From Legionella sp. (GTDB lineage: Bacteria > Pseudomonadota > Gammaproteobacteria > Legionellales > Legionellaceae): a DNA stretch of 64,000 nucleotides. The stretch's first letter is position 1. The number at the start of each line of letters is the position of its first letter. Of this stretch, positions 18,110-19,888 are shown piece by piece. The position numbers were made by a program, and so were the translations under genes. The notes under the pieces are model-generated. The model had not been told where the DNA came from. It ran no database searches and saw only the letters and a program-made list of their open reading frames with translations. Where the stretch lies: assembly GCA_017306715.1 (NCBI GenBank), contig JAFKHV010000017.1:5220-69219 (forward strand), in the 5' to 3' direction.

Positions 18110-19888
18110 CTAGGCTAATAACTTCGCAATTTCTTTAATGTTACCCCGCAGTAGTAAATCCTGTGGCGCCCAAAAATCCGGCCAAAAACTTTGCAATGCG
18201 GTGAGATAATGATGACCAAAATCAGGACTTAATTGAATGAGTGCCTCGGCACATTTTATAAATTTAGACGCTTGAAAAGGTCTTTGTTTCTGAGATGATT
18301 CTTGATTGTTGAGCATTTGCGCATACATTTGCTGAAAATGAGTATTAAGCATTGCCGGCACTGGGGTATTTCCATCATATAAACGATGATCGGCACTAAT
18401 GGATATCGGGAGATGATCCTGAACCTCAAATTCATTTATTTTTTTATTCCATACTTGTCGACGCTCGACTTGCAGCATAACAAATTTCATCACTTCATTT
18501 TTAAAAAGGGGAGATTTAGCAACGGTGTAGCCCCAGGGACCTACATTGCTTAATGTTGCGACCGGATTACCCGGCAGTGGGTATCCATAAACAGCCTCGC
18601 TAAAATCGTAGAGCTTTTTGGGATCTAATGATTTTAAATGAGGATAATAGGACTCGAGTTCTTCACGTCGTTTATAGCAGTACACCATCATAGGAATAAT
18701 GTCGCGTATGCGAGTTGCTAATTCACCGTGATGCCATTGGTGACAATTAGCAAAAGCAATGGTCGCGATGTGATCACGACAACCGGGTAATTGTACGATA
18801 ATGCCCGTGTAGGCGTCTTGACTGCGAAATAACTTTTTTCCATGGATGTAGACACGGTATTCTTCATGTTCAGCAAGCCAGCAGCTCATTGTTTGCAACA
18901 TCAATGTGGTCAAAGTCTCAGGAGGAAATTTTTTACTGAAAAAATCCAGCGCGCTGATATTGATATTGGATTGAGAGAACATTGTGGCGTCGCTGCTGTT
19001 ATCCCATTGAGACATTAACAGCTGGCGCATAGGGGTCATGGGAATTTCTTCCTGTGAATCACCATATTCTTTAACCAGGGGGAGCAAGTTATCCGCCAAA
19101 TGCATGAGCGCTTGCCATTTTTTCCCAGGACGCAAGTTGATTTTTTGTAATTGACTTTGATGTTTCTGGTGTAATGCTTGGATAAAATGAGTCGCTTCGG
19201 CAACCCCGAGCAGATTGGTTGTTGCTACCAGATAACGGTGTTGTAGAAAGAAGTTATGTAATAATTTATCTTCAAAATGAAGGAGCTTTTCTCTCATAAC
19301 TTCTGCCGCCGGCAAGCCAACATCCTGGTAAAGATCCGCCTCACACACATGACGATGTTCATCAGCAAGAATCGCTGAAAATACTTTCGGAGCAATGTTT
19401 TGGCGCATAAAGCATTTAAACGCTTCTTCTATCCAGCCTTCAGCGACCAGATTTAAAAGCATGATTGCCGCTTTCGGGCACTCTTCTTCTCGAACAAAAT
19501 TACAAAGCTCTTCAATGGCTGTATTGTATGCTGGTGGGAGATTGTATGGAGCGCATAGTAAGTAAACAATTTTAGTAAAAACTAATCCATGAAAAATCTC
19601 ATCCAGTAATTGGGCGCGCATACGCTGTTGATTTTCTTTAGAGATCATTTTATCCGCAAATTTAAGCGGTATTTGAATTGCTAAAACTTCAAGTTGGGCC
19701 AACATTGAAAACGCATAGACATAAAGTATTTTTTCATGTTCTAGTTCAAAGGGTAATCCTTCAGCAAAAAGGACGTTGAGACGAGTCGTTATCGTCTCCT
19801 TTTCTGCAGAAGTAAGTACAGCCCAGCCTTCTGCAATCCATTTTTCTGAACCCCAAACAGGGTTTAACAATGCGCGCATTTCATCCAT
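18110..19888 (-). CDS. Fusion protein: N-terminal ferritin-like di-iron carboxylate domain + C-terminal 2-oxoacid-dehydrogenase-type (CAT-fold) acyltransferase domain
   Basis: The N-terminal half carries the E...ExxH...E...ExxH ligand pattern (AQLEVLA, LLDEIFHG, VAEGWIEEAF, LADEHRHV). The C-terminal half ends with the E2-type catalytic motif ISISADHRLYDG (DHRxxDG). AAGGAA RBS. Only 14 nt downstream of the previous gene. Confidence 0.6.
   Translation of the reverse strand: MDEMRALLNPVWGSEKWIAEGWAVLTSAEKETITTRLNVLFAEGLPFELEHEKILYVYAFSMLAQLEVLAIQIPLKFADKMISKENQQRMRAQLLDEIFHGLVFTKIVYLLCAPYNLPPAYNTAIEELCNFVREEECPKAAIMLLNLVAEGWIEEAFKCFMRQNIAPKVFSAILADEHRHVCEADLYQDVGLPAAEVMREKLLHFEDKLLHNFFLQHRYLVATTNLLGVAEATHFIQALHQKHQSQLQKINLRPGKKWQALMHLADNLLPLVKEYGDSQEEIPMTPMRQLLMSQWDNSSDATMFSQSNINISALDFFSKKFPPETLTTLMLQTMSCWLAEHEEYRVYIHGKKLFRSQDAYTGIIVQLPGCRDHIATIAFANCHQWHHGELATRIRDIIPMMVYCYKRREELESYYPHLKSLDPKKLYDFSEAVYGYPLPGNPVATLSNVGPWGYTVAKSPLFKNEVMKFVMLQVERRQVWNKKINEFEVQDHLPISISADHRLYDGNTPVPAMLNTHFQQMYAQMLNNQESSQKQRPFQASKFIKCAEALIQLSPDFGHHYLTALQSFWPDFWAPQDLLLRGNIKEIAKLLA

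Follow-up and report, generated by a model that had tools for sequence, protein, structure and literature searches.

A conserved Legionellaceae protein family that joins a ferritin-like di-iron domain to an E2-type acyltransferase domain, and a proposal for its function

What could a bacterium do with a single polypeptide that carries both a ferritin-like di-iron domain and an E2-type acyltransferase domain? This question is raised by a 64,000-nucleotide stretch of DNA from Legionella sp. (contig JAFKHV010000017.1, positions 5,220 to 69,219; hereafter the window), in which the list of open reading frames (ORFs) and its translations show an uninterrupted ORF of 592 codons at 18110-19888 on the minus strand, encoding a 592-amino-acid (aa) fusion protein that we call P0001 (Table 1). 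An earlier note on this DNA, made from the letters alone, had described such a fusion, called it unusual and suggested that it may first oxidise and then acylate its substrate. When we re-translated the key codons at window coordinates, all motifs quoted there were present at the residues given, and in an alignment of 30 Legionellaceae homologues the N-terminus of P0001 was in register with the homologue starts, which makes the start of the gene credible. By simple hydropathy we saw no signal peptide or membrane segment in P0001, the highest 19-residue Kyte-Doolittle mean being 1.52, and this peak falls on the ligand-bearing core helices. The best explanation of our results is that P0001 is a soluble, cytoplasmic protein of an uncharacterised family. 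We further propose that it is bifunctional, both oxidase and acyltransferase, and that its substrate is a long-chain lipid, probably an isoprenoid, a proposal whose chances of being right we consider about even.

Structure prediction bore out both folds. An AlphaFold2 model of the whole protein was built on the 30 homologues (pLDDT 82.7, pTM 0.81) and the N-domain was also modelled alone (pLDDT 84.3), where it folded as an all-helical bundle. The N-domain model was compared exhaustively with 48,161 PDB representatives by VIA-align (VIA), for which a Z of ~13 is the caution level for helical bundles. The top matches were to aldehyde-deformylating oxygenase (ADO), with Z 17.5 and a root-mean-square deviation (rmsd) of 3.2 Å over 201 residues, and overall the ADO entries gave Z 17-18 and rmsd 3.0-3.4 Å over ~204 residues (5ux2, Z 17.5-18.0; 4rc5, Z 17.3); in the comparison of the full model a dozen cyanobacterial ADO entries matched the N-domain at Z 16.4-18. 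The alpha subunit of soluble methane monooxygenase (sMMO) hydroxylase matched at Z 16-17 (17.2 over 254 residues when the N-domain alone was compared), toluene-4-monooxygenase and phenol hydroxylase at Z 15, the R2 protein of ribonucleotide reductase (RNR) at 14.5, R2lox at 13.9, PaaA at 12.2, BoxB at 10.3 and AurF at 10.0. This was further supported by Foldseek, where every match of the N-domain was a ferritin-like di-metal protein with weak E-values (best 0.018, to the stearoyl-acyl carrier protein (ACP) desaturase 2j2f), and by the ESM Atlas, where its structural neighbours were ferritin-like/AurF clusters (TM 0.68). A four-helix-bundle ferritin-like core is thus confirmed for the N-domain, both by VIA scores above the caution level and by the Foldseek matches.

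Sequence searches placed this domain in no known family. Pfam and NCBIfam recognised nothing in residues 1-282, a PDB sequence search with the N-domain returned insignificant matches only, the best being designed di-iron bundles, and there was a weak sequence match to MmoX (residues 227-283, E 1.4). The ADO family PF11266 did not match the N-domain alone even at E <= 10, the acyl-ACP desaturase family PF03405 did not match it either, and the AurF/CmlI N-oxygenase family PF11583 did not match P0001. COQ7 and alternative oxidase gave no Pfam match to P0001 and were not among the best 50 structural rows for the N-domain. For PF11583, a remote N-domain-like relative of ~315 aa (P0171) reached 15.9 bits, where the cut-off is 29.6. 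An Atlas feature score of 0.82 is a lead only.

The pattern E...ExxH...E...ExxH expected of di-metal ligands is present in the N-domain, with ~30-residue spacing within each half and the ligands distributed over four separate helices in the models; E177 lies at the end of helix 167-178 and H180 immediately after it. The four motifs picked out in the earlier note, AQLEVLA (E67), LLDEIFHG (E97 and H100), VAEGWIEEAF (E150) and LADEHRHV (E177 and H180), have withstood a wider comparison. All quoted ligand and catalytic residues were invariant among the 30 Legionellaceae homologues (48-64% identity), and when we aligned 33 remote relatives of ~450 aa, which share 17-24% identity with P0001, thirteen columns were still invariant (E67, Q93, E97, H100, F104, N146, E150, W152, E177, R179, H180, E465 and H501), while D96, D500, R502 and G506 were found in at least 90% of them. 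A chance origin of the motif set is untenable, as judged from these alignments, and invariance at such low identity implies that the fusion is ancient and not a local accident. The third motif also holds E154 and E155; since E154 is unconserved outside Legionellaceae and E150 is invariant in the remote relatives, E150 and not E154 would be the third carboxylate ligand. The motif around E177 and H180, DE(H)RHV.EA, is similar to the consensus helix of the designed 'due ferri' proteins. F104 lies four residues after H100, at what we take to be the position of the radical tyrosine in RNR R2, and a radical-generating role of the R2 type is therefore unlikely for the N-domain. Taken together, fold and conservation show the N-domain as a ferritin-like oxygenase fold with a full predicted set of di-metal ligands.

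Since the N-domain belongs within the ferritin-like superfamily, and E2 cores form cages of 24 or 60 subunits, ferritin-like domains carried on a self-assembling E2 core could also be pictured as an iron-storage or ferroxidase cage. We regard this as very improbable, because the N-domain is of the ~215-residue substrate-oxidising type (ADO, sMMO and R2lox, Z 14-18) and Dps and bacterioferritin-type proteins reached only Z 8-9 in the VIA comparison. Moreover, the acyltransferase residues are conserved, and the links to isoprenoid synthases described below have no place in a cage.

The only Pfam family found in P0001 was PF00198 (31.1 bits, cut-off 23), and its match is confined to residues 445-508, whereas the AlphaFold2 model contains the entire fold. 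The best PDB matches of the C-domain in Foldseek were all E2 cores (Escherichia coli AceF 4n72, E 4.5e-8, probability 1.00), and VIA aligned residues 296-527 of the model with the E. coli E2p core at Z 15.7 and rmsd 2.9 Å over 189 residues. A profile of the fusion family matched PDB E2p at E 5.8e-5 and aligned the family stretches ...S-L-S-N-x-G and ...S-A-D-H-R-x-x-D-G with FTISSIG and SFDHRVIDG of E. coli E2p; it is this alignment that puts H501 and D505 where the E2 motif has its His and Asp, with S447 facing the leading Ser of FTISSIG. In E2 enzymes a Ser at that position stabilises the reaction intermediate, and S447 may do likewise. The stretch ISISADHRLYDG holds D500, H501, R502, D505 and G506, so that the E2-type catalytic His/Asp motif is indeed found at residues 500-506, with its codons re-translated and its His invariant in the remote relatives. 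Fold and conservation thereby show the C-domain as a predicted complete E2/CAT catalytic fold with S447, H501 and D505 in place.

Public annotations name this protein '2-oxo acid dehydrogenase subunit E2', and a PF00198 score above the cut-off could be taken to mean a divergent E2 subunit of a 2-oxoacid dehydrogenase complex. This is the least probable of all the explanations that we considered. Neither a lipoyl domain nor an E3-binding domain (PF02817) was detected in P0001 with Pfam at E <= 1, nor is there a domain for binding E1, and P0001 scored 13-17 bits against the NCBIfam equivalogs of AceF/SucB type, which have cut-offs of 552-722; the earlier view that this is not a canonical E2 was thereby upheld. 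No E1 or E3 gene lies near the fusion gene, and three ordinary E2 genes (179-299 bits) are present elsewhere in the window genome, from which it follows that P0001 is not the housekeeping E2. P0001 resembles E2 catalytic cores (PF00198; AceF 4n72 and the Azotobacter vinelandii E2p 1eaa/1dpc) in its complete fold, its DHRxxDG motif and the Ser of its SNxG stretch, but it differs from E2 subunits in sequence (14-20% identity), in the extra di-iron domain and C-terminal helical tail, and in lacking lipoyl and subunit-binding domains and any E1/E3 link. Despite the public annotations, P0001 is not a dehydrogenase subunit, and the dehydrogenase-E2 label is a widespread annotation error. The family occurs commonly in Legionellaceae, named Legionella species among them.

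A separate observation concerns the third canonical PF00198 match in the window genome (G000:C19:29737-30363), which has one in-frame TGA within the matched stretch; a pseudogene, a mistake in the sequencing or the presence of two genes could each account for this.

How does the N-domain compare with di-iron enzymes of known function? Its compact ferritin-like bundle is like that of cyanobacterial ADO (4rc5, 5ux2 and 4kvq), of which ~204 of ~220 residues could be aligned, and ADO uses the same E/ExxH/E/ExxH ligand pattern. However, the identity is 10-14% and PF11266 is unmatched; ADO is a single-domain protein working with acyl-ACP reductase, neither of which holds for the two-domain P0001, and no deformylation is implied. 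The longest overlap was with sMMO MmoX (1fyz), toluene-4-monooxygenase (3dhg) and phenol hydroxylase (2inn), at Z 15-17 over 238-254 residues (model 24-282), but those are subunits of ~500 aa in multi-subunit complexes that work with dedicated reductase and regulatory proteins, none of which are encoded near the fusion gene. Castor stearoyl-ACP desaturase (2j2f/1afr), the top Foldseek hit, is a di-iron enzyme acting on a thioester-carried lipid chain and would be a logical pairing with an E2-type domain, although the scores were weak (E 0.018; VIA Z 11.2), PF03405 did not match, and desaturases are ~350 aa without an acyltransferase domain. The earlier note knew of no characterised enzyme with this architecture, and our searches of the literature, the PDB and curated families turned up none: the full-text search gave neither a paper about this protein from Legionella nor one in which an acyltransferase of the 2-oxoacid-dehydrogenase type is linked to a di-iron or ferritin-like domain, the structural searches gave no PDB chain spanning both domains, and no Pfam or NCBIfam model covers the N-domain. 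What is new is an architecture made of two known enzyme folds, whose function is put forward here as a proposal.

The fusion turned out to be no rare oddity but a conserved family, present in 115 of 198 sampled Legionellaceae genomes and in metagenomic two-domain relatives (genome counts here and below are from samples of species representatives, among which related genomes do not count as independent and three went unscored). Within the window's own genus it was present in 42 of 61 sampled genomes. A large protein database contains 286 relatives; the 120 listed were all full-length (556-639 aa) and, where an organism name was given, all from Legionella or Legionellaceae. An exhaustive profile search of 1.84 billion representatives gave 178 hits, among which a second tier of ~430-490-aa proteins matched both domains, several of them passing PF00198. 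These remote ~450-aa relatives are metagenomic, with none of the top 150 representatives coming from a named non-Legionella source, and the Atlas placed a 450-aa member closest to a 596-aa Legionella-type cluster (score 0.94). When 400 Pseudomonadota genomes were searched by profile, the only matches outside Legionellaceae were ordinary E2 subunits, and a second search by word index gave just six proteins. Single-protein scans of genome and metagenome collections yielded no usable contigs for the ~450-aa relatives, and in locus scans from the ~450-aa alignments no stretch was conserved enough to serve as a query.

Of the 61 genomes sampled from the window's own genus, 19 gave no match to the fusion gene. 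Broken family copies, in several frames or interrupted by stops, were seen at G142:C1:2917686-2919427, G170:C107:1189-2921 and G126:C34:4606-6150, which suggests recurrent loss within Legionellaceae. In one genus, three species carry N-only genes of ~300 aa whose frames are still open (L035:9839-10744 in G166, G064:C10:11118-11963 and G047:C15:21879-22649). The copy in G166 (L035, 301 aa) lies at the syntenic place of a full-length gene elsewhere, one of the clade named (a) below, and has the changes H100R, E150Q and H180L. We considered the N-only gene as a free-standing oxidase and rejected this, as the L035 copy lacks H100, E150 and H180 and looks like a decaying remnant.

Which substrate might such an enzyme act on? 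The relatives of P0001 and their gene neighbours gave an indication. We fetched 30 further Legionellaceae loci, clustered the neighbouring genes and rooted the protein tree on the 450-aa forms, which resolved three groups with clade (b) nested in clade (a) and clade (c) sister to both. Clade (a), which includes P0001, consists of proteins of ~590-615 aa that are 40-64% identical to P0001 and have variable surroundings: folD, rlmJ, gloB and a gene with a thaumatin domain near the fusion gene of the window and of close relatives, and Trp/Tyr permeases, Dam methylase or MFS transporters elsewhere. One genome (G147) holds one clade-(a) gene and one clade-(c) gene, and these two clades are therefore paralogues.

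Clade (c) comprises proteins of ~600-655 aa, 35-38% identical to P0001 and with both active sites intact. In all 11 fetched loci a gene of ~340 aa from the squalene/phytoene-synthase family lies directly downstream, at gaps of -1 to 223 bp, and the genes flanking the pair differ, with seven or more distinct outer contexts. Among the 198 sampled genomes this partner was present in 12 and adjoined the clade-(c) fusion gene in 12 of 12. Of named models, squalene synthase (TIGR01559) matches it best, and it has retained DxIED, YCFFVAGxVG and FLQKxNxLxDxxxD, which we take to be squalene-synthase signatures, both Asp-rich motifs included. A squalene cyclase (PF13243) was found neither in four partner-carrying genomes nor in the window genome, where positive controls matched. 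'Squalene synthase' figures in a paper on L. lytica among the rare genes of Legionella that have not been studied (PMC11828895).

Clade (b) has proteins of ~700 aa, 42-48% identical to P0001 over residues 1-550, and in 7 of 7 fetched loci the gene directly upstream resembles an octaprenyl-diphosphate synthase of IspB type. This gene is an extra copy, since G093, G079 and G081 also hold a second one, while the window genome and G034 have one only. Two IspB copies occurred in 19 of the 198 sampled genomes (18/19 clade-(b) genomes), and in 17 the copy most like our query adjoined the fusion gene; the exception, G170, has 4% contamination. The C-terminal extension of clade (b), at least ~100 aa long (L032:8812-9400 and its equivalents in L047-L052), matched no Pfam or NCBIfam family. 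P0001 and clade (b) share the architecture and the six ligands, but P0001 keeps the full acyltransferase set and has neither the IspB partner nor the extension.

Because each of the two branches nearest to P0001's own is tied to a dedicated gene for building isoprenoid chains, the most likely substrate class would be a long-chain isoprenoid lipid, squalene-like or polyprenyl-derived. We propose that the N-domain binds two metals, most likely Fe-Fe but possibly Mn-Fe, through E67, E97/H100, E150 and E177/H180, and that with O2 and an external electron donor it would hydroxylate, desaturate or otherwise oxidise a long hydrophobic chain; ADO enzymes, to which the N-domain is structurally closest, take long aliphatic chains. 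The C-domain would carry out acyl transfer, with CoA or a phosphopantetheine arm as the thioester carrier on one side and, on the other, an acceptor that would most simply be the oxygen function made by the N-domain, and P0001 would probably assemble as E2-type trimers. Which metals are bound, what kind of reaction is catalysed, that its two steps are coupled and what clade (a) acts on are matters that we infer. This is in line with how both active sites are preserved, as the six ligands together with D500-H501-R502 are kept in P0001, throughout clade (c) and the 450-aa forms, and in the majority of clade (a) and of the other long forms; D500, H501 and R502 are found in every such tabulated sequence and D505/G506 in most.

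Several observations weigh against this proposal. For the window's own clade there was no conserved neighbour among the fetched loci, synteny being seen only in close relatives. No squalene-synthase homologue was found in the window genome, where positive controls matched, and the genome has only one IspB; an isoprenoid substrate for P0001 is therefore extrapolated from the sister clades. An electron-transfer partner is neither fused nor adjacent to the fusion gene. In addition, the two active sites can be lost separately. Clade (b) keeps all six metal ligands but has H501 changed to G, N or S, S447 to A or C and E465 to T or S, and judged by these replacements its acyltransferase should be dead. 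The reverse is seen in two full-length metagenomic proteins in or beside clade (c), where P0144 (598 aa) has all six ligands replaced and P0150 (594 aa) all but E67, with S447, N448 and D500-H501-R502 intact. These reciprocal losses imply that the two chemistries are not obligatorily coupled. The two-step scheme of the earlier note, oxidation followed by acylation, accordingly survives in part: both sites are kept in P0001 and it is still the best reading, whereas an obligatory coupling would go beyond what domains that lose their sites separately indicate. In most lineages each domain is under selection for its own chemistry, and either one can persist as a non-catalytic module.

Could the chain instead be a fatty acid? 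If the substrate were a fatty acyl thioester, the di-iron domain would desaturate or hydroxylate a chain borne on CoA or ACP, in the manner of acyl-ACP desaturases, and the E2-like domain would load or off-load the acyl group. The structural neighbours fit this, as Foldseek ranked stearoyl-ACP desaturases (2j2f) first for the N-domain and VIA ranked ADOs first, which use fatty aldehydes; E2 domains bind CoA and a swinging thiol arm, and there is no isoprenoid partner in the window's clade and no squalene synthase in its genome. On the other hand, no gene for fatty-acid or ACP metabolism is a conserved neighbour in any clade, the strict gene associations of the family are only with isoprenoid synthases, and PF03405 gave no match. 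We consider the fatty-acyl substrate somewhat unlikely, and it is the main rival of an isoprenoid substrate; a scaffold, an effector, a cage and a true E2 are progressively less likely.

That clade (b) retains the whole C-domain in 7 of 7 loci, despite its altered H501, S447 and E465, raises the possibility that only the di-iron domain is catalytic and that the E2-like domain serves throughout as a scaffold for oligomerisation or substrate binding, as E2 cores are stable oligomers. A pure scaffold needs no DHR motif, however, and this is kept not only in P0001 but also by most members of clades (a) and (c), the other long forms and the 450-aa relatives, while P0144 and P0150, with E2 residues and no metal site, point to a chemistry of the C-domain's own. 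A scaffold role for this domain in P0001 is improbable in our view.

The organism belongs to Legionellaceae, and its genome cannot make squalene although a sister clade is tied to a synthase matching TIGR01559. Possibly, then, P0001 is a secreted effector of the Dot/Icm type whose target is a lipid of the host (for example squalene, a sterol precursor, dolichol or ubiquinone) and not a bacterial metabolite. We find this quite improbable, since remote metagenomic relatives of the same architecture are not what a recent effector invention would look like, the gene that builds the substrate is bacterial and adjacent in clades (b) and (c), and no secretion signal was seen, although no search was aimed at one.

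The proposal of a bifunctional enzyme for isoprenoid lipids can be extended into a broader one that we rate as decidedly unlikely, namely that an undescribed Legionellaceae pathway for tailoring isoprenoid lipids has this family at its core. The di-iron centre would oxidise squalene or a polyprenyl chain and the E2 domain would esterify it, with clades (b) and (c) using the lipids of their own synthases and the window's clade a housekeeping isoprenoid or one from the amoebal host. If so, the bacterium could modify host pools of squalene, sterol precursors or polyprenols. An isoprenoid link as such, if true, would mean that lipids of squalene or polyprenyl type can be oxidised and acylated by a new route with a soluble di-iron enzyme, and would open an unexplored part of Legionella lipid biology. 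New here are the catalytically complete form, the sister clade linked to a squalene-synthase-like gene, the finding that either active site can be lost while the other stays, and the remote relatives of 450 aa, by which the fusion can be dated. The family offers three natural experiments, an intact branch with a squalene-synthase-like gene, a branch with a dead acyltransferase and an extra polyprenyl synthase, and relatives with a dead metal site, which make its function directly testable.

Table 1. Positions in the window of the fusion gene and of the parts of P0001
Feature	Position	Strand	Basis
Whole gene, 592-aa di-iron/E2-type fusion P0001	18110..19888	(-)	ORF and translation; stop codon 18110-18112
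N-terminal extension (residues 1-46) bearing a conserved motif rich in Trp: W12, W17, E20, G21, W22	19751..19888	(-)	Invariant columns in homologues
Ferritin-like di-iron oxygenase domain (predicted), residues ~47-262	19103..19750	(-)	Structural matches; all-helical domain runs on to ~277
E67 codon, first carboxylate ligand (predicted), helix 53-80	19688..19690	(-)	Conservation and re-translation
E97-I-F-H100, first ExxH ligand pair (predicted), helix 84-112	19589..19600	(-)	Conservation and re-translation
E150 codon, third carboxylate ligand (predicted), helix 138-162	19439..19441	(-)	Conservation and re-translation
E177-H-R-H180, second ExxH ligand pair (predicted)	19349..19360	(-)	Conservation and re-translation
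E2/CAT-fold acyltransferase catalytic domain (predicted), residues ~296-527	18308..19003	(-)	Foldseek, VIA, PF00198, family profile
L446-S447-N448 of the ...SNxG stretch	18545..18553	(-)	S447 opposite first Ser of E. coli E2p FTISSIG
D500-H501-R502-L-Y-D505, E2 catalytic motif DHRxxDG (catalytic His and partner Asp)	18374..18391	(-)	
C-terminal helical tail, residues ~530-592, with conserved LQ(T/S)xWxDF motif	18113..18301	(-)	Homologue alignment and model

Outside the two catalytic domains, P0001 has an extension at either end. Residues 1-46 are helical in the AlphaFold2 models and mostly opposite gaps in the alignment with the ~450-aa relatives. The C-terminal tail is missing from those relatives, is longer by at least ~100 aa in the ~700-aa clade and matched no Pfam family. 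Scans for promoters and terminators flanking the fusion gene gave a number of sites not above that in shuffled sequence.

G053, G019, G037, G136 and G188 were noticed to carry another gene like squalene/phytoene synthases, more distant than the clade-(c) partner (~320-347 aa; E 1e-21 to 1e-34 with that partner's profile). There was no match to the fusion gene in G053, G136 and G188, and in G019 and G037 the two genes lie far apart.

The neighbours of the fusion gene in the window are, as said above, folD, rlmJ, gloB and a gene for a thaumatin-domain protein. The latter is an ORF of 807 aa (19903-22326, minus strand) with a thaumatin-family domain (PF00314, E 6e-12, residues 462-633), which ends 14 bp upstream of the fusion gene, and the two may be co-transcribed in the window. 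Their pairing is not conserved, since in L031, a close relative, a 613-aa gene on the opposite strand lies between the homologues. Further upstream, an ORF of 270 aa (22292-23104, minus strand) encodes an outer-membrane beta-barrel (PF13505), whose similarity to the lipid A 3-O-deacylase PagL (PF09411) was weak and below the cut-off (E 0.004); the end of this ORF shares 35 nt with the beginning listed for the thaumatin-domain ORF.

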